A stretch of 64,000 nt of DNA from Acutalibacteraceae bacterium (GTDB taxonomy: Bacteria; Bacillota_I; Bacilli_A; RFN20; CAG-449). Positions 3,672 through 62,410 of this stretch are shown in pieces. The translations under genes and the position numbers were made by a program. The notes below the pieces were generated by a model. The model made no database searches. It was not told the origin of the DNA and saw only the letters and a program-made list of their open reading frames with translations. The DNA is taken from positions 39,146 to 103,145 of the forward strand of contig CAVDMV010000003.1 in the NCBI GenBank assembly GCA_963610315.1, in the 5' to 3' direction. How positions within the stretch are numbered: position 1 is the stretch's first letter; each line of letters starts with the position of its first letter.

Positions 3672-5279
3672 TTATTCAATAGTTAAAGTACCTAAGCAAA
3701 GAAGTTCTTGTGATTCACGGTCAAATAACATGATATGATTACCTCTAAAACCTAATTTAATATCAGTTCCAATCATATAATCAACCGCGCCAAATTCATC
3801 ACCGGTCAGTAGATAGTTACCTACTTCTAAACGAATAGTTGTTTCTTTACCAGTAGGCATTGCGCTATAAACTTTTGCTTCAAGATTACCACCTTCATTA
3901 ATAGTGATATATTGTGATCTTACCCCAAGAACAAAGTCAAATTCATCGATAGTTGGATTATCTGGAACATCGATTGGTTGAGTAATTAATGGAATCTTAT
4001 AAGGGAATGGTCCATCTTTATTTGATTTATCTTCATTAACTGGACGAATATTCTTCTTAATTTCTTCACGACGTTTTTCTAAATCGAAATTTGGATCAGT
4101 TGGAGTAAAAATAGCCACTTTATCATCAAAGATTTTAAATTTAAAGGAATTACCTTCTTTTTTACCTCTTGCTTCAATTAAGTTAACTGCTGGGGTACCA
4201 ATAAAGTCCGCGACAAAGAGATTATTTGGATAATGATAAGTACGAATTGGAGGTTCATATTGTTGTAAAACACCATTATTCATTAAGCAAATTCTTGTTG
4301 CAAGAGTCATCGCTTCTAGTTGGTCGTGAGTAACATAAACGAAAGTCGCTCCTGTTTCCATATGGAGACGTTTTAATTCAGAACGCATTTCTAAACGTAG
4401 TTTTGCATCAAGGTTACTTAAAGGTTCATCCATAAATAAAACCTTAGGTCCAGGAGCTAAAGTACGCGCAATCGCGACACGTTGTTGTTGACCACCTGAT
4501 AATTCAGCAGGATAACGATCCATGAATTGAGTGATTTTTAATGTACGAGCTGAAGCACGTAATTTTAAATCGATTTCTTCAGGAGAAAGATGACGTACTT
4601 TTCTAATTGGATTACCATTTTCATCTAAATAACAATATTTATCATTTAGTTTGTCACCCTTCTTTTCGTGTTTGTCTAAGATCTTTTTAATTTCTTCATT
4701 TACTTTTTTTCTTTCTTCTTCTACTTTAGTTACTTCATAGCCTTTAGAAAGAAGTTTATAAGCTTTCTTTGCAGTAGGATAACTTACTTCAAAGAAATCA
4801 GTGATTTTAATAATCGCCGTTTCATCTTTAATTCTACCGTTTTTATCCGCGGCATCTTTAATTAAAGAAACAATCTTTTCTGGCTTATCTAAAACATTTA
4901 AATAATCATGTAAAGCGATTAAATCCCAATCATAGACATCCATTTCTTCATTGACATTCTTTAAACCAAAAGCAATGTTTTGATAAACTGTCATATTAGG
5001 CCATAAAGCATAGTTTTGGAATAAGAAACCAACATGACGTTTACTCGCAGAAACATTAATACCAAGTTCAGAATCAAAGACAACTTCATCACCGATAATA
5101 ATTCTTCCAGAAGTCGGAGTTTCAAGTCCTGCAATCATACGTAGCGTTGTAGTTTTACCACATCCAGATGGACCAAGTAATGTAACGAAACTATTATTAG
5201 GGATTTCTAAATTTAAATCATCAACGCCATAAAATTTACCCCATTTTTTATTGACGTGTTCTAATACAATTTTAGGCAT
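3672..5279 (-). CDS. sugar ABC transporter ATP-binding protein (MalK/MsmK-like) with a large inserted region
   Basis: Walker A GPSGCGKTT, Q-loop, LSGGQQQR signature, Walker B LFMDEPLSNLD; start taken at MPKIV (GGAGGAGG RBS), not the upstream in-frame Met; about 140 aa inserted between Q-loop and signature. Confidence 0.85.
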   Translation of the reverse strand: MPKIVLEHVNKKWGKFYGVDDLNLEIPNNSFVTLLGPSGCGKTTTLRMIAGLETPTSGRIIIGDEVVFDSELGINVSASKRHVGFLFQNYALWPNMTVYQNIAFGLKNVNEEMDVYDWDLIALHDYLNVLDKPEKIVSLIKDAADKNGRIKDETAIIKITDFFEVSYPTAKKAYKLLSKGYEVTKVEEERKKVNEEIKKILDKHEKKGDKLNDKYCYLDENGNPIRKVRHLSPEEIDLKLRASARTLKITQFMDRYPAELSGGQQQRVAIARTLAPGPKVLFMDEPLSNLDAKLRLEMRSELKRLHMETGATFVYVTHDQLEAMTLATRICLMNNGVLQQYEPPIRTYHYPNNLFVADFIGTPAVNLIEARGKKEGNSFKFKIFDDKVAIFTPTDPNFDLEKRREEIKKNIRPVNEDKSNKDGPFPYKIPLITQPIDVPDNPTIDEFDFVLGVRSQYITINEGGNLEAKVYSAMPTGKETTIRLEVGNYLLTGDEFGAVDYMIGTDIKLGFRGNHIMLFDRESQELLCLGTLTIE

Positions 5280-7161
5280 GTTTATTTTTACCTCCTCCGA
5301 TACCTGAGTCAATTGAAGCACCGGTTAATTTATTTACACCAAAGTTTGCGATTAAGACAAAGATAATAATTAATAAGTTAATCGCACTTGAGAAGGCTGA
5401 TAAGCCCATTTCATCATAATAAGATAATGATGTAGTCGCGATTTGATCGTTGTTTGTTACTAAGAACATGAATAAATTTAATTCACGCATACCAGTAATA
5501 AATGGTAATAAGTAACCTGAGATAATCGCGGATTTTTGAATAGGTATAACAATATGTGTCATACGTTTCCACCAAGGAGCCCCTTGAATAACGGCAGCTT
5601 CTTCAATTTCTGAAGATAATTGCATCATCGCGCTTAATGAAGAACGAGAAGCAAATGGAATATATTTAACAGATCCGCAGAGAATCATTAGGAACATTGC
5701 TCCTGCTGCTCCGGATATACCGGCATTTAATCCAAAGGCATGATATGCTGCTGAGAAAGCAACGGCTGGAATTAAATAAGGAAGGAACGAAATACCATTT
5801 ACATAACCTGCAAATTTATTCTTTCTCTTCTTTGATACACAATATCCAACTAAGAAGCCAAGAGTACCAGCAATAAGCGCACAGCTAACTGCAACTAAAG
5901 CTTGATTTCCAAATGATTTCCAAATATTTGTGTTATAGAAAATACCATAGTTACCATACATTCCAGCTTCACCATTTTCGTGATATGTCCACCATTTAGT
6001 TGTCCAAGATGAATAGTCTCCTGGGTTAGATAAGAACGTTTCAACACCGAAAGAAATAACAGGTAAGATAGAAGTAAAGGCAGTTAAGATAATTAAGATA
6101 ACTGCAATAACCCATTTACCAACTTTATTTAATTGAATCTTTGTTGCTTGAGCTGATTTACCAGAAACTGTAACGAATTGTTTTCTTGAAGTTAAAGAAG
6201 CTTGGTTAATAATTAAGATAATAAAACCGATAAGAAGCATTACAATACCGATAATAGAAGCAAATCCTTCACCAGTAATCGCTCTTAAATCAATGTAAGA
6301 AGTCGCAAGTACTTGGAAGTCTTTTCCGCCGACATAGTGAACGACTGGATAAGAACCAACTGCACTTGAGAAAACAAGTAAGATAGTTGAAAGTATCGCT
6401 GGAATAATCATTGGAATTGTAATTCTAAAGATGATTTTCCATTTTGGTGTATTTAAGATTGTCGCCGCTTCTTCAAGTGAAGCATCCATATTCTTAAAAA
6501 TACCACCGATTAAAATATAAGCAAATGCTGCATAGTGAATACCTAATACTAATGCTGAAGGGAATAAGCCTTGACACCACCATAAAGGGAAACGCCACGA
6601 AATTCCCATCTTAGAGAACATATAAGCAAAGAATCCATTAGAACCACCTGTTACATCCGCTGACCAGAATAAGTTTTTCCAAACAACTGCCAACGTCCAT
6701 TGAGGCATGATGTAAGGGAAAATGAAGATTGATGAAATCCACTTCTTACAAGGCAAGTTAGTTCTAGTAACTAAGAATGCCGCAATACCACCAAAAACTA
6801 AAGCAAACAAGCAACTTAACGTTCCTAGAAGTAACGAATTACCTAATGGAACCCAAAGATATTTATTCGCATAAGCGCCGCCGAAAAGATTAGCCCAGTT
6901 AGAAACTGAAAGTCCAACGGTATTATATCCATAGGCTTTTGCAAATTGCATTTCTTTACCAGCATGGACGGTAAATGAATTTTGAATAATAGACCAAAGA
7001 GGATAAAGAACTGCGAAAGATAACACTACACCCAATATTAGTAAAATTAAATTTTCAGGTCGAGAAATCCACGTGCCAACATGTGACATTACTTTATCCA
7101 TTGTTCCAGGAGTCTTTATATTACTAGAAGAATCTGAATATTCTTTTTTGTTTTTAAACAT
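5272..7161 (-). CDS. sugar ABC transporter permease (long, multi-span)
   Basis: Many predicted TM helices; start at MFKNKK with AAAGGAGA RBS; overlaps the ATPase start by 8 nt. Confidence 0.75.
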   Translation of the reverse strand: MFKNKKEYSDSSSNIKTPGTMDKVMSHVGTWISRPENLILLILGVVLSFAVLYPLWSIIQNSFTVHAGKEMQFAKAYGYNTVGLSVSNWANLFGGAYANKYLWVPLGNSLLLGTLSCLFALVFGGIAAFLVTRTNLPCKKWISSIFIFPYIMPQWTLAVVWKNLFWSADVTGGSNGFFAYMFSKMGISWRFPLWWCQGLFPSALVLGIHYAAFAYILIGGIFKNMDASLEEAATILNTPKWKIIFRITIPMIIPAILSTILLVFSSAVGSYPVVHYVGGKDFQVLATSYIDLRAITGEGFASIIGIVMLLIGFIILIINQASLTSRKQFVTVSGKSAQATKIQLNKVGKWVIAVILIILTAFTSILPVISFGVETFLSNPGDYSSWTTKWWTYHENGEAGMYGNYGIFYNTNIWKSFGNQALVAVSCALIAGTLGFLVGYCVSKKRKNKFAGYVNGISFLPYLIPAVAFSAAYHAFGLNAGISGAAGAMFLMILCGSVKYIPFASRSSLSAMMQLSSEIEEAAVIQGAPWWKRMTHIVIPIQKSAIISGYLLPFITGMRELNLFMFLVTNNDQIATTSLSYYDEMGLSAFSSAINLLIIIFVLIANFGVNKLTGASIDSGIGGGKNKHA

Positions 7162-43573: not shown

Positions 43574-43671
43574 GTTTCTAAATTATAGCAAAAGGACCAA
43601 AAAATTAAAATAATTTCTTTCGTTTGATATAATATATCAAATTGACTATAATAAAAAGAAGAGGTGGCCTC

Positions 43672-45408
43672 ATGGATAAAATTATTGAATTTTTTCAAAA
43701 CTTAAATTTTGATAAATTTATTAGTTATTTAAAAGATTATAGATTTTGGATTGTTATCGCTGCGATTGTTTTATTAATCATTTTAAGTATAACTGTCATT
43801 ATATATTATAAAAAAGACTATAAAAGAATTGCTTTAAATTATGAAGATTACAATACTAGATATTTCTCTATTCATTATGAAGAACAATATGTTTATTCCG
43901 TTGATGATAAGACATTGACAAAGAAAAGAAAAGAAAATCTTGATTGGTTCTATTCTTCATTTATTCCACAAGATAAATTAAGAGTTATCGTTTGGATTAA
44001 TGCTTTACAAAAAGAAGATACAAAAGCTTCTAATTACTTAGAAGTCCATACGAAAATTCAATTTCCTAAAAGAAATGTTTATACAATTCTTACAGTAACT
44101 AGTATTAATTATGAAAAGAAGATCATTCATATAGAATCAAGAATCTTCCCTAATATTAAAAAATCTCGTATGGAATTAGGTAGAAAATTAAATATCAAAA
44201 ATGAAAAAGATATGCCTTCCTTATTAAACGAAAAAAAAGATTCTCCTTGCACAATGTTCTTATGTCAATTATTTACCGAAGAGAATAGTTCAACTAAAAT
44301 TACTAATATCTTAGTTACAATCTTACTTTCGAGATTACTAAAATTCACATCAAAAAATAGACTCATCTGTTCAACAGAAAATAATTATATTGCAATTGTA
44401 AGCTTTAATTCATGTACAGATGTAGAAGTTTCTTCTTTAGGTAACAAAATCGCAAAAGAAATATCAAAGATCTTATTCTTAAGTTCCATTTCAAATAATA
44501 TTTCTTTTAAAATCGGAATTATTAAAGACTCTAATAGAGAATATGATTTCTATAAATTAGTTTCTATTGGTGAAGAAATTACTAATTATGCATATCAAAA
44601 CGAATTATCAAGTAATGTTATTATTTATAACCAAAATATGAACTATCAAATTGAACAAGATTCAGAAGATATTGATGAATTAAAATCTGTTCTCAATGAA
44701 AATTTATTTACTCAAACTATTACTCCAATATTAAATACAAAAGGACAAGTATTTGGTTATGATATTAATTTCAATGTCATATCCGATAAAATTAAGTCCT
44801 TTGAAGAATTACAAACTATCGCCCTTGATAATAATTATACATTCGAATTAGAATCCGTATTTTATCGTAACGCACATTCATTGTTTATTGGGCATGCACC
44901 AAGAACAAATCAATATATCTTGTTTGATATAAAACCAGATTGTTGCAATTACATAAAAGATATTATTGCAAGTAATCAATCTGCAAAAAAAGCTCAAACA
45001 ATCTTTGTATTAAAAGATTATGATGTAAATGATGATCTAATAACTAAATTACAAGAATTAGAAACATCAGGAATTAATTTTGCATTAGAAATTACTTCTA
45101 CAACATTAACATTAAGCGCTGAATTAATGAAGATTTTCCCTTATTTCATATTAAGAGAAACTACATTCGACAGCAGTTTCACTGGTCAATATCTTGCTTT
45201 CTTTAGCGATATGGTCAATAGAATTTCTACTTATAAAGGAAAAATTATCGCAACTGGTGTCTCATCTTGGTCAAACATTGAAATATTATTAAATTTAAAC
45301 GTTGGATTAATCTCTTCAAAACAAATTGCTCAATCAACTGCTGGTATGCCAACAATTGATGATAAGAGAATTGAAAAGCTTATTTCATTAAAAAAAGAAA
45401 ATAAATAA
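43672..45408 (+). CDS. membrane-anchored protein with degenerate (probably non-catalytic) EAL domain
   Basis: N-terminal TM helix; C-terminal region aligns to EAL blocks (ITPILNTKGQVFGYDINF; FALEITSTTL) but the EAL and DDFGTGYSS catalytic motifs are not conserved; start at MDKII after AGAGGTGG. Confidence 0.55.
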   Translation: MDKIIEFFQNLNFDKFISYLKDYRFWIVIAAIVLLIILSITVIIYYKKDYKRIALNYEDYNTRYFSIHYEEQYVYSVDDKTLTKKRKENLDWFYSSFIPQDKLRVIVWINALQKEDTKASNYLEVHTKIQFPKRNVYTILTVTSINYEKKIIHIESRIFPNIKKSRMELGRKLNIKNEKDMPSLLNEKKDSPCTMFLCQLFTEENSSTKITNILVTILLSRLLKFTSKNRLICSTENNYIAIVSFNSCTDVEVSSLGNKIAKEISKILFLSSISNNISFKIGIIKDSNREYDFYKLVSIGEEITNYAYQNELSSNVIIYNQNMNYQIEQDSEDIDELKSVLNENLFTQTITPILNTKGQVFGYDINFNVISDKIKSFEELQTIALDNNYTFELESVFYRNAHSLFIGHAPRTNQYILFDIKPDCCNYIKDIIASNQSAKKAQTIFVLKDYDVNDDLITKLQELETSGINFALEITSTTLTLSAELMKIFPYFILRETTFDSSFTGQYLAFFSDMVNRISTYKGKIIATGVSSWSNIEILLNLNVGLISSKQIAQSTAGMPTIDDKRIEKLISLKKENK

Positions 45409-45435: not shown

Positions 45436-46065
45436 TCATCTCACGAAACTATTTTTTTGTTTGTTCATTTGATTTTTTTGATATATTAGATGAACTAATC
45501 CATCTAATTGTAATTGATCAATTGATGCGATATTTTCTTTTTCTTTTTCATCAACAAATCCATATAATTCACTTTCATTGATAATAGCTAAATTCTTTGG
45601 CATTCCTTCAATATCATCAATTAAGCAAGAATCATTACATACGCAGATGCCTACAAATAAATCTTCTTCTTTAACATTTAATGCACTGATTAAATAATCT
45701 AGTCTAGCTTTATGAAGAAGCATTGGATTTTTACCAACTGCTCTAGTATTTTTTTCATCATATTTGAACCATTGATCATCCGCAAATTTACCAGATAAAC
45801 CACCTCTTAATGATAAATTAGATATACAGTAAATATATTTGTTACCAAATAATATGTGATTAAAATGAATTGTTTTTGTATCAATTTCTATTTCAATGTT
45901 ATTAATTAAATATAAGTCTTTATCTTTAGCAATTTGATAAGTGTAATCGTAGACACGTTTAAAGAATTGCTTGTCATCTTGATGTTCTTTTATAACAGGC
46001 AAGAGTAAAACAAGCAATGAAATTACAACGAAAACAGTTACAAAACAAATTGCGCCAACTAACAT
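45436..46065 (-). CDS. NERD-domain membrane-anchored protein
   Basis: N-terminal TM helix then NERD-like block IEIDTKTIHFNHILFGNKYIYCISNLSLRGGLSG...W. Confidence 0.5.
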   Translation of the reverse strand: MLVGAICFVTVFVVISLLVLLLPVIKEHQDDKQFFKRVYDYTYQIAKDKDLYLINNIEIEIDTKTIHFNHILFGNKYIYCISNLSLRGGLSGKFADDQWFKYDEKNTRAVGKNPMLLHKARLDYLISALNVKEEDLFVGICVCNDSCLIDDIEGMPKNLAIINESELYGFVDEKEKENIASIDQLQLDGLVHLIYQKNQMNKQKNSFVR

Positions 46066-46939: not shown

Positions 46940-47671
46940 TTATTTTAGAATATCATTATCATAAAATTTAATGCTTAAGACAGGCCATTTAATTTTAGAA
47001 TAATTTCTATCCCTACTATTAAGTTTACGGCCTGATGGTTGATAAATAAGTCCTCCAAAATGAATATTTTTATTATTTGGTTTTTCTTCTTTTAAAATCA
47101 TGTCATAAATTTGATCAGTATCTAATAAGAAGCCTTTTTCTGGATTACCATAATAAAAATAATCCATTGGTTCACGTTCTGGGTTATTGCCTGCAATAAC
47201 AGTATGATAAACAATTTTTTTAATAATTTCTTTATTAGAATTTAATTCTTCGTTAGCTTGAATAATATATTCACTATATTTTTCAATTATTTCATCTTTT
47301 GTTAATGGTTCACCATTGTTACCTAATTTTTTTGAAGCCCCAAAATGATAGAAAGAAATAATGTGCCGAGTTCTACTACTAACACCTATTTTCTTTAAGA
47401 ATTGAAAGAAATCATAAAAATATTCTTGGTGAATAGATGGATTACTTCCTGACTTAATTGAAACATTAATTCTTGATTTACGAACTTTAATTGTTATATC
47501 TGGTTTAGCTCTTCGATCATCAAAAGAATAAGCTTTTATTAAGTCATTATCTTCAACAAAAGAAAACATCCTCTTAATATTTTCTTTCCATAAAGGGCTT
47601 AAATCCTTATATTTTTTATTATTTAGAACATCTATAATGTCGAATTCATTTTTTTCTCCGATATTTGGCAT
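46940..47671 (-). CDS. hypothetical protein (243 aa), possible nuclease-like fold
   Basis: Complete ORF with RBS; no family recognised; weak PD-(D/E)xK-like spacing (KPDITIKVRK); lies between deoD and the tRNA remnants. Confidence 0.45.
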   Translation of the reverse strand: MPNIGEKNEFDIIDVLNNKKYKDLSPLWKENIKRMFSFVEDNDLIKAYSFDDRRAKPDITIKVRKSRINVSIKSGSNPSIHQEYFYDFFQFLKKIGVSSRTRHIISFYHFGASKKLGNNGEPLTKDEIIEKYSEYIIQANEELNSNKEIIKKIVYHTVIAGNNPEREPMDYFYYGNPEKGFLLDTDQIYDMILKEEKPNNKNIHFGGLIYQPSGRKLNSRDRNYSKIKWPVLSIKFYDNDILK

Positions 47672-47740
47672 GTTTTTTAACCTCCTAAATATATCTTTTG
47701 AGGTTTTAAAGAAAAATCCTAAATAATTTTATTTTTATTT

Positions 47741-47840
47741 AACCGATCGGTCGGGGTTCGAGCGGAGATAGTCCCATCCTCACCTATTGGATTAGAAGAG
47801 GCTTAACTCGTCATTCACGGTGTTCGAATCCTTATAGAAC
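47741..47840 (+). pseudogene. degenerate tRNA-Asn 3' half fused to a truncated tRNA-Glu-like copy, inverted relative to the functional genes
   Basis: TTAACCGATCGGTCGGGGTTCGAG matches the tRNA-Asn T-arm; CCTATTGGATTAGAAGAGGCTTAACTC...GTTCGAATCC matches tRNA-Glu but lacks the anticodon stem. Confidence 0.5.
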
Positions 47841-47865
47841 AAAAAAAGCACCTATTACAGTGCTC
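47841..47865 (-). terminator. Rho-independent terminator of the tRNA-Asn/tRNA-Glu operon
   Basis: AGCACTGTAATAGGTGCT hairpin followed by TTTTTTT on the minus strand. Confidence 0.6.
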
Positions 47866-47877
47866 ATATTTCCAAAT

Positions 47878-47954
47878 TGGTGACCTATACGGGATTCGAA
47901 CCCATGAATGCATGCGTGAAAGGCATGTGAGTTAAGCCTCTTCTCCAATAGGCC
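47878..47954 (-). tRNA. tRNA-Glu (anticodon UUC)
   Basis: Reverse complement GGCCTATTGG...CTTTCAC...GGGTTCGAATCCCGTATAGGTCACCA; anticodon loop CTTTCAC; similar to Bacillus tRNA-Glu. Confidence 0.85.
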
Positions 47955-47960
47955 AGAGGA

Positions 47961-48036
47961 TGGCGCCTATCGAGGGACTCGAACCCACGACCGATCGGTT
48001 AACAGCCGATTGCTCTACCGACTGAGCTAGATAGGC
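47961..48036 (-). tRNA. tRNA-Asn (anticodon GUU)
   Basis: Reverse complement GCCTATCTAGCTCAGTCGGTAGAGCAATCGGCTGTTAACCGATCGGTCGTGGGTTCGAGTCCCTCGATAGGCGCCA; anticodon loop CTGTTAA. Confidence 0.9.
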
Positions 48037-48073: not shown

Positions 48074-48102
48074 ATATTACCATAGCAATCGGCTGTTTGC
48101 AA
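48074..48102 (-). promoter_or_regulatory. sigma-A promoter of the tRNA-Asn/Glu operon (-35 TTGCAA, 17-nt spacer, -10 TAATAT)
   Basis: Consensus-like hexamers; downstream leader shares an 18/19-nt element with the tRNA-Thr leader. Confidence 0.5.
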
Positions 48103-62232: not shown

Positions 62233-62256
62233 TAATCCTCCCCCATAGAGATATTA

Positions 62257-62327
62257 ATATCGTAGTCTCGCTATTTACGGCAGCGAGGTAGAGACTTTCG
62301 AACCAATCATCGAATTTATACGACCAA
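62257..62327 (-). ncRNA. purine riboswitch aptamer, guanine-type (C at the specificity position)
   Basis: Minus strand UCGUAUAA-AUUCGAUGAUUGGUUCGAA-AGUCUCUACC-UCGCUGCCGUAAAUAGCGAG-ACUACGA aligns block by block with the xpt aptamer (UAUAA, UCUACC, CCGUAAAU, GACUACG). Confidence 0.7.
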
Positions 62328-62410
62328 TTACATATTTAGTTTACTTGGTAAGATTGTTTATGTCTATATCAATTTTTTGAAAGCGATTTCATGAGCTTTC
62401 AACTATTCAA

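Follow-up and report, generated by a model that had tools for sequence, protein, structure and literature searches.

The 64,000-nucleotide (nt) stretch of contig CAVDMV010000003.1 analysed here (the window) contains, on its minus strand, a working tRNA-Asn/tRNA-Glu operon and, just beyond the terminator of that operon, a degenerate copy of the same two genes in the opposite orientation, which we call the remnant. Our favoured explanation, to which we give a probability of roughly one half, is that the remnant is the dead arm of an old quasi-palindrome and has been repeatedly re-copied from the working arm. It is taken as a refreshed dead arm on the strength of the placement of the two arms around a terminator hairpin, the one-way concert in which they change, a reversion in the remnant that spans a tract, a second inverted tRNA fragment of 14 nt inside the operon's promoter, and young fragments of a similar kind beside a tRNA-Ile gene in a relative.

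A quasi-palindrome around a tRNA terminator

The working pair had been described, from a reading of the letters, as tRNA-Asn(GUU) and tRNA-Glu(UUC) on the minus strand only 6 nt apart, with a promoter and terminator of their own, and all of this held up: ARAGORN and Rfam agreed on both genes, the terminator was recovered by the terminator scan, and the promoter was seen by eye, being under the 9/12 threshold of the promoter scan and hence unlisted there. The terminator is of the intrinsic type, with a GC-rich hairpin, GAGCACTGTAATAGGTGCTT, followed by TTTTTGTT (minus strand). Relatives have analogous terminator hairpins, and the promoter hexamers are kept across them. The features of the locus are as follows.

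46940-47671, minus strand: 243-amino-acid (aa) gene, a homologue of HinP1I/MspI-like PD-(D/E)xK nucleases, downstream of the operon and reached by any terminator read-through
47739-47776, plus strand: Asn', degenerate inverted 3' half of tRNA-Asn that begins in the anticodon loop (TTAACCG...), from alignments
47777-47782, plus strand: spacer copy in the remnant, TCCTCA, which covaries with the working spacer
47783-47840, plus strand: Glu', degenerate inverted copy of tRNA-Glu from which about 16-17 nt of the anticodon arm are gone, from alignments
47846-47865, minus strand: intrinsic terminator hairpin, with a T-run after it at 47845-47839, from the terminator scan
47878-47954, minus strand: tRNA-Glu(TTC), second gene of the operon, from ARAGORN and Rfam RF00005 (55.4 bits)
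47955-47960, minus strand: Asn-Glu spacer of 6 nt, TCCTCT, whose lineage variants are mirrored in the remnant
47961-48036, minus strand: tRNA-Asn(GTT), first gene of the operon and source arm of the repeat, from ARAGORN and Rfam RF00005 (69.5 bits)
48074-48102, minus strand: operon promoter, TTGCAA - 17 nt - TAATAT with TGn 5' of the -10 hexamer, read by eye
48084-48097, plus strand: second inverted fragment, AGCAATCGGCTGTT, 14 nt, an exact (100% complementary) copy of the D-stem/anticodon-stem of tRNA-Asn, positions ~24-37

The remnant (plus strand, 47739-47840) aligns with the working pair from position 35 of tRNA-Asn, within the anticodon loop, to the 3' end of tRNA-Glu. Far from falling to background under formal alignment, the similarity gave a local score of 78 against 15.2±2.1 (maximum 26) for 500 shuffles, which bears out the preliminary description of an inverted, degenerate copy without function in which Asn still precedes Glu. 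The inverted blocks between the arms are of 18 nt (94%) and 16 nt (100%), the former being the part of Asn' complementary to 47985-48002, and the remnant is the sole long-range inverted repeat in the 64 kb with a seed of at least 13 nt. The Glu-like copy had been said to lack its anticodon stem, and about 16-17 nt of the anticodon arm are indeed missing in the alignments, as is the 3' strand of the Asn T-stem. Nor is the remnant an intact tRNA gene, here or elsewhere: ARAGORN gave no plus-strand tRNA in the window or any relative, a search with RF00005 gave no match even at E<=10, and the tRNA stems of the remnant are broken in every lineage.

The arms (47739-47840 and 47878-48002) are separated by a 7-nt A-run, the terminator hairpin and a 12-nt trailer. 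The remnant thus lies about 37 nt past the 3' end of tRNA-Glu, mirror-symmetric about the terminator, and the midpoints of the inverted blocks, at 47861-47870, place the centre of symmetry on the terminator itself. In every lineage the remnant begins 0-3 nt from the terminator T-run, though the terminator sequences differ. The whole, about 260 bp long, has the make-up of a quasi-palindrome: two inverted arms and a short hairpin-forming spacer. An assembly artefact was considered and ruled out, as the same architecture, with sequence differences, is present in independent NCBI, ENA and Logan assemblies.

A central GC-rich hairpin with an A-run, a T-run and flanks that face one another is also what the bidirectional terminators of convergent transcription units look like; the differences are that the plus-strand 'unit' here is no gene and that the symmetry goes on past the terminator for about 100 nt in each direction. 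The likeness raises the idea that the remnant is itself a plus-strand gene for a small RNA (sRNA) derived from a tRNA, or for an unusual tRNA-like molecule, and is transcribed toward a bidirectional terminator that it shares with the operon. U-rich sequence does follow the hairpin on the plus strand too, and in two related loci, L145 and L147 (loci of relatives have L numbers throughout), it scores as a terminator there. Moreover, a promoter-like TTGAGG-18-AATAAT is found at 47698-47727 (plus) in a region kept in L009 and L141. We nonetheless regard the idea as very improbable. The RNA from 47730 to 47875 is not unusually stable (z = -1.41, with 23 of 200 shuffles folding as well), it has no Rfam match in addition to its broken stems, and promoter-like matches are no commoner than in shuffles. 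The promoter-like site coincides with one arm of a hairpin that pairs with the Shine-Dalgarno sequence of the downstream nuclease gene (described below), an overlap that explains the site's conservation.

Distribution and age of the remnant

A contig of a metagenome-assembled genome (MAG), GCA_963590545.1, matches the window at 99.9% identity. A pattern scan with one genome per species found this Asn-Glu junction at ten loci, every one of them in uncultured gut Bacilli/Erysipelotrichales-like MAGs, and more loci were gathered through homologues of the flanking proteins, namely a 74-aa acyl carrier protein (ACP) and the 243-aa protein, of which there are homologues in L141, L143, L145, L147, L152, L154 and L275. 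Identities of the 243-aa protein gave the species order ((window, L141), L143), (L145, L152), L147, (L154, L275). A metagenome scan with the pattern TTCGAGN{2,5}GATAGNNCCATCC was too loose, and its 120 matches were all due to chance, with no homology to the locus. Five independent Logan contigs assembled from short reads (L134, L136, L137, L138 and L140) all stop exactly 127 nt past the ACP stop codon, within tRNA-Asn, at a point where assembly is evidently broken by the inverted repeat or by copies of the tRNA elsewhere in the genome.

A remnant with identical internal deletions, among them that of Glu', is present in the window, L010, L135, L139, L141, L009 and L011, and the tRNA-Asn(GTT) sequence is the same in all of these. 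Remnants with other deletion patterns are found in L143, L145 and L152, with inverted-alignment scores of 39-45 against 15±2 for shuffles. By inverted alignment no remnant was found in L147, L004, L007, L008, L012 or L013. Altogether it was found in at least five diverged lineages. The 243-aa proteins of syntenic relatives are 46-76% identical to that of the window, which has 56-57% identity to the protein of L143, 52-53% to those of L145/L152 and 46% to that of L147. The order ACP, tRNA-Asn, tRNA-Glu, terminator, 243-aa gene is held wherever a lineage has the gene at this site, even where the protein is no more than 46% identical, and the genes outside this block vary between lineages on both sides. 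Presence of the repeat does not track the supposed cargo: L011 has kept the remnant and has other genes downstream in place of those for the 243-aa protein, the purine nucleoside phosphorylase (PNP) and the NERD protein, and L147 has kept the 243-aa gene and the tRNAs and has no remnant.

Local rearrangements can be seen in some of these loci. In L007, which has no remnant, the place that the nuclease gene would occupy, with tRNA-Glu on one side and a 968-aa gene of the BcrAD/BadFG type on the other, is taken by an open reading frame (ORF) at 5096-5551 (plus) and a 176-aa ORF. The translation of the first of these, read by eye, resembles the C-terminal portion of an IS66-family transposase. 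In L143 that 968-aa gene comes immediately after the nuclease gene, and so it seems that a rearrangement cost L007 both the nuclease gene and the remnant. In L141 (3874-5733), and also in L009, a 619-aa gene with a weak HD-domain match lies between the nuclease and PNP genes; it is absent from the window.

The remnant had been read in the preliminary description as the scar of an inversion or integration event, with the tRNA 3' half as an attachment (att) site and the genes at 45.4-47.8 kb as the cargo, and of all the explanations we weighed this one is the least probable. The points of likeness are genuine: the copy is a tRNA 3' part that lies beside the intact gene and starts in the anticodon loop, a classic crossover position of tRNA-targeting integrases (PMC2853133), the GTTAAC of that loop is palindromic, and many viral contigs of IMG/VR contain the tRNA-Asn 3' half. 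An integrase scar, however, consists of the tRNA 3' part in direct repeat on either side of an island (PMC2853133), whereas the copy here is inverted, about 37 nt past the 3' end of tRNA-Glu, runs on through the spacer and into the next tRNA, and has no island between it and its source. The partner repeat that had been proposed was searched for in the window, and there was no second copy of the Asn 3' half within the 64 kb at <=3 mismatches. The six neighbouring proteins scanned with Pfam include no integrase or recombinase domain, and a scan of viral contigs for the Asn 3' half, together with phage BLAST, brought up nothing specific to the locus, only tRNA-Asn matches of a generic kind and tRNA genes of phages. 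The comparison with relatives that had been suggested for the 45.4-47.8 kb segment also told against it, as the remnant is present with or without those genes (L011) and the supposed cargo is conserved synteny. The flanking genes had been called accessory-type; this does not fit the 243-aa gene, since synteny held to 46% identity means that it is not a recent accessory insert, variation between lineages being seen in the genes further downstream. Lastly, the remnant changes in concert with the working genes, as described in the next section, unlike a passive scar.

The remnant is old and, to judge by its sequence, is not drifting neutrally. With gaps counted as mismatches, its identity between the window and L010, L009 and L011 is 0.90, 0.81 and 0.75, respectively, against 0.73, 0.52 and 0.50 at pooled 4-fold sites, where about 50% is essentially saturation (binomial P 9e-6 to 6e-10). 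Its GC content is 0.41-0.48 in every lineage, compared with 0.16-0.18 for the neighbouring spacers and 0.30 for the whole window.

Concerted change of the arms and further inverted fragments

Comparison of sequences across lineages showed that the two arms change in concert. By alignment score, the best match for every lineage's remnant is its own operon.

Window remnant: 128.5 against its own operon, 96 against the L145 type
L145 remnant: 100 against its own operon, 77-79 against the window type
L143 remnant: 58 against its own operon, 52-54 against the other types
L011 remnant: 106 against its own operon, 102 against the other types

The individual differences behind these scores can be followed in the spacer and in the tRNA genes. 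After CCATCC the working spacer has TC in the clade of the window, TT in L141 and L009, and AT in L011, and the remnant copies have TC, TT and AT to match; RNAalifold recorded one spacer pair (columns 49/226) as CG in four sequences and UA in three. The L145/L152 remnant has the variants of its own tRNAs, GGCAGAGC, TTGTAGG and GTGGTTT, and with both the window and the outgroup L147 as reference, the C in GGCAGAGC is a derived state. Likewise, the L143 remnant has ACTCATGGG, as does its own tRNA-Glu. In one case, which resembles a copied tract, the remnants of L143, L011 and L141 have the derived states TATACC and GGTCATG in common, and the remnant of the window clade has there TTAACC...GGTCG, the same as the working gene, so that on the species order from the 243-aa protein three sites within 15 nt would have reverted. 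This three-site reversion and the replacement of 14 nt in the promoter spacer are candidate copied tracts, from sequences too few for formal ancestral reconstruction.

The 14-nt replacement is the second inverted fragment, AGCAATCGGCTGTT, which occupies the -35/-10 spacer (48080-48096) of the operon's own promoter. L010, L141, L009 and L011 retain 11-14 nt of it. In L145, L152, L007, L005 and L008 the fragment is missing and the hexamers and their spacing are unchanged, and this points to a length-preserving replacement. The fragment and the remnant meet at the tRNA-Asn anticodon loop, one starting where the other ends. This invited a circular permutation, as from an integrated circle, which was rejected as less parsimonious, given that the promoter spacer is exactly replaced and its 17-nt spacing kept, and that analogous fragments in L154 overlap and do not abut.

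The L154 fragments came from a scan for inverted self-copies within 400 nt of 198 tRNAs, covering 2.1 Mb, in which only the Asn-Glu family and the tRNA-Ile of L154 scored; around the window's three other tRNA loci there are no inverted copies derived from tRNAs. Upstream of this tRNA-Ile (2010-2086) there is a 20-nt (95%) inverted copy of the D-arm at 1927-1946, and downstream, in the Ile-Val spacer, the anticodon arm is copied in inverted form over 17 nt (94%) at 2095-2111. These fragments, a second and independent instance of inverted tRNA pieces on both sides of a tRNA gene, are not kept in the sister locus L275 and are therefore recent. The L154 locus encodes a 41-42% identical homologue of the 243-aa nuclease.

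On the favoured explanation, the segment from the anticodon loop of tRNA-Asn to the end of tRNA-Glu would have been copied once, in inverted form, by fold-back or template-switch replication at the terminator hairpin, in an ancestor of uncultured gut Bacilli now separated into several lineages at the species to genus level. The comparisons show that the copy then lost pieces that form hairpins with themselves, i.e., the anticodon arm of Glu and one strand of the Asn T-stem. Short tracts would have been re-copied from the working into the dead arm by replication template switching or short-patch gene conversion, and this is why the remnant would follow the lineage variants of the tRNAs and their spacer. 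Copying would go one way, as the working arm is not free to change, and a DNA arm would persist in this manner without any function.

Precedents for such a process exist. Template switching makes reverse-complement copies and repairs imperfect hairpin arms, giving rise to apparent compensatory changes (PMC8794818), and a role for it in the correction of imperfect inverted repeats has been proposed in bacteria (PMC5941160). The locus resembles homogenised quasi-palindromes of this kind (Ripley-type templated mutation; PMC8794818, PMC5941160) in its inverted arms around a short hairpin spacer, its mirrored arm changes, its tract-like corrections of several bases, and the new short inverted copies nearby (the promoter 14-mer and the L154 fragments). 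It differs from them in that its arms are about 100 nt long, one being two essential tRNA genes and the other dead, which makes the copying effectively one-way, and in its persistence across lineages with saturated synonymous sites; the homogenised repeats described in bacteria are mostly short (<30 nt) and perfect.

The neighbouring nuclease gene and what the element may mean

The 243-aa gene had been marked as nuclease-like, and the fold supports that call. Searches of Pfam, NCBIfam and PDB sequences gave nothing useful, and it was structure prediction with Foldseek alone that identified the fold: the AlphaFold2 model (pLDDT, its confidence score, of 90.9) has as its best match HinP1I (2fkc, E 4e-10, TM score 0.65), followed by 1ynm and MspI (1sa3), with TM scores of 0.59-0.66 across the full length. 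PADLOC matched the protein to REase_II (E 2.5e-6), and the invariant residues of the family are K55-P56-D57 ... S70-x-K72. In its modelled fold and its PD...(D/E/S)xK motif, the protein is by these predictions a HinP1I/MspI-like type II endonuclease. The family is found within tRNA clusters in two syntenies, ACP - tRNA-Asn - tRNA-Glu - gene and rpsI - tRNA-Ile - tRNA-Val - tRNA-Thr - gene - tRNA-Leu. In L149/L150, where the nuclease homologue is not beside tRNA genes, the 345-nt region 5' of it has two similar hairpin repeats, GTGGGACCGCTTTCTCTAATAGCGGTCCTCAGACAC and GTGAGTGGCACGGCTATCACTAATAGCCGTGCTCAGACAT.

In the window, L141 and L145 alike, the promoter scan found no sigma-70-like promoter on the stretch from the terminator to the start codon of the nuclease gene. 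Immediately upstream of the gene, a hairpin at 47679-47705 (minus) pairs AACCUC with the Shine-Dalgarno (SD) sequence GGAGGUU; the corresponding arms are AGCCUC/GGAGGCU in L009, a compensatory change from A-U to G-C, and AGUCUC/GGAGGCU in L141, with a wobble pair. This pattern suggests translational sequestration of the nuclease ribosome-binding site.

With regard to the rest of the surroundings, the Pfam scan of six neighbours returned the ACP, a periplasmic binding protein, the PNP, a weak NERD match and two proteins without a match. The NERD match is that of a 209-aa ORF (45436-46065, minus), below the Pfam gathering threshold (21.3 vs 22.1 bits), and a 588-aa ORF (43642-45408, plus) has no match in Pfam, NCBIfam or PADLOC. 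A purine riboswitch aptamer (RF00167, 75.3 bits) lies further away at 62243-62343 (minus). Among palindromic 4-mers, the rarest in the 64 kb relative to expectation are GATC (0.59), CATG (0.68) and GCGC (0.69), the last being the site of HinP1I. The depletion is too mild for the specificity of the nuclease to be read from it, and that idea was rejected.

The preliminary description had proposed that the two copies could pair in read-through transcripts, and in prediction they do. The read-through RNA from 48040 to 47672 has a predicted fold of -169.5 kcal/mol, against -92±5.5 for shuffles (z = -14), that takes the form of a bulged hairpin of about 100 bp. Transcripts that escape the terminator would carry about 100 nt antisense to the tRNAs and would fold into this long imperfect duplex, which could serve as a fail-safe insulator between a strong tRNA promoter and the HinP1I-like nuclease gene, through RNase III cleavage or a structural block. 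On the basis of the modelled fold, the potentially toxic nuclease gene may thus be insulated from read-through. There is some resemblance to the RNase III fold-back stems of rRNA operon processing, which also are long imperfect predicted duplexes of distant transcript parts that enclose structured RNA genes, with the differences that here the stem would be formed only in read-through, that one strand is the tRNA itself and not a flanking spacer, and that it is known from an in silico fold. Another comparison is with E. coli, in which the 3' external transcribed spacer of glyW-cysT-leuZ acts as an sRNA sponge. Both are non-tRNA sequences attached to a tRNA operon with possible regulatory pairing, but the stretch here is past the terminator and is complementary to the tRNAs of its own operon instead of to sRNAs.

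Several points weigh against the favoured explanation or its insulator step. Other AT-rich intergenic spacers also align, at 0.71-0.85 identity over their alignable parts, so the argument from slow divergence rests mainly on the 4-fold sites and the GC content. The L011 remnant provides a counter-example to copying, with AGAAGT where its own tRNA-Glu has AGAAGA, and the remnant of the L145/L152 lineage may have had an independent origin. Template switching was inferred from patterns over only about 10 distinct sequences. Deletion bias should purge useless DNA, and retention in five lineages argues for some selection. For insulation, read-through, duplex and cleavage are all predictions; tRNAs fold fast and co-transcriptionally, which may keep the duplex from ever arising in vivo; the simpler way to insulate the gene would be a better terminator; and L147 has the nuclease gene and no remnant. 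An excess of G:U-compatible substitutions in the remnant was not seen (about 3-4 compatible vs 2 disruptive transitions, from few events), and there is thus no positive sign of selection on RNA pairing.

If selection is nevertheless at work, the remnant could be a cis-regulatory 5' part of the nuclease gene, an anti-tRNA leader whose complementarity is kept by compensatory selection and not by copying. Such a leader would couple expression of the nuclease to read-through or processing, or sense free tRNAs or tRNA halves. Anticodon nucleases cut in the anticodon loop, and it is exactly there that Asn' begins. Also in keeping with a leader are the retention of the remnant, with its high GC content, over saturated synonymous divergence, its covariation with the spacer and tRNA variants, its presence with the nuclease gene in four of the five lineages that have the gene at the site, the lack of a detected nuclease promoter in three lineages, the SD-sequestering hairpin just 3' of the remnant with its one compensatory pair, and the occurrence of the family in tRNA clusters of two different syntenies. 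Even so, we think a leader unlikely. L147 has the gene and tRNAs without the remnant and L011 the remnant without the gene, the deletion patterns vary widely by lineage, substitutions have no wobble-tolerant bias, the three-site reversion within 15 nt looks more like a single act of copying than three point mutations under selection, and mature tRNAs are poor pairing partners. That the stretch is a selected RNA element tying a domesticated HinP1I-like nuclease to the fate of tRNA transcripts, be it read-through, processing or the tRNA halves made by anticodon nucleases, is accordingly put forward only tentatively. In a bolder variant the nuclease itself would provoke breaks, with fold-back repair giving rise to inverted tRNA fragments, also at the tRNA-Ile of L154.

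The restriction-enzyme fold of the neighbour brings up one more possibility, which concerns origin only: the remnant as an inverted target duplication, a by-product of the insertion of a restriction-enzyme-like gene that was formerly a mobile restriction-modification unit (PMC2853133). The variation between lineages in gene content past the nuclease gene would also suit this. We find it a good deal less likely than a leader, as both arms lie on one side of the gene and do not flank it, the gene is a stable syntenic neighbour to 46% identity, and no methyltransferase, transposase or integrase domain was found in the six scanned neighbours, nor a methyltransferase domain in the called genes of the related loci (the loci only being covered). 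It also leaves the concerted evolution and the 14-nt fragment in the promoter unexplained.

Homogenisation of inverted repeats by template switching and the presence of tRNA fragments at att sites are both already known. What is unusual here is that a long arm consists of two tRNA genes, that it has persisted over saturated divergence and clearly tracks lineage variants, and that it lies at a terminator beside a nuclease family associated with tRNA clusters; a literature search found no description of such an element. On a practical note, the repeat breaks short-read assemblies inside tRNA-Asn, and it is at risk of being mis-annotated as a pseudo-tRNA or an att site. If the stretch is selected, it would be a new type of cis element, antisense to the operon's own tRNAs and located past their terminator, that controls a neighbouring nuclease gene. 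If, on the other hand, the re-copying of a dead arm from a working one is the true explanation, this would be an unusually clean natural case of one-way concerted evolution in a bacterial quasi-palindrome, with essential tRNA genes as the fixed template from which a dead mirror image is renewed over very long times, and a caution that covariation of complementary stretches, normally taken as proof of a functional RNA helix, can arise from a mechanism of replication.

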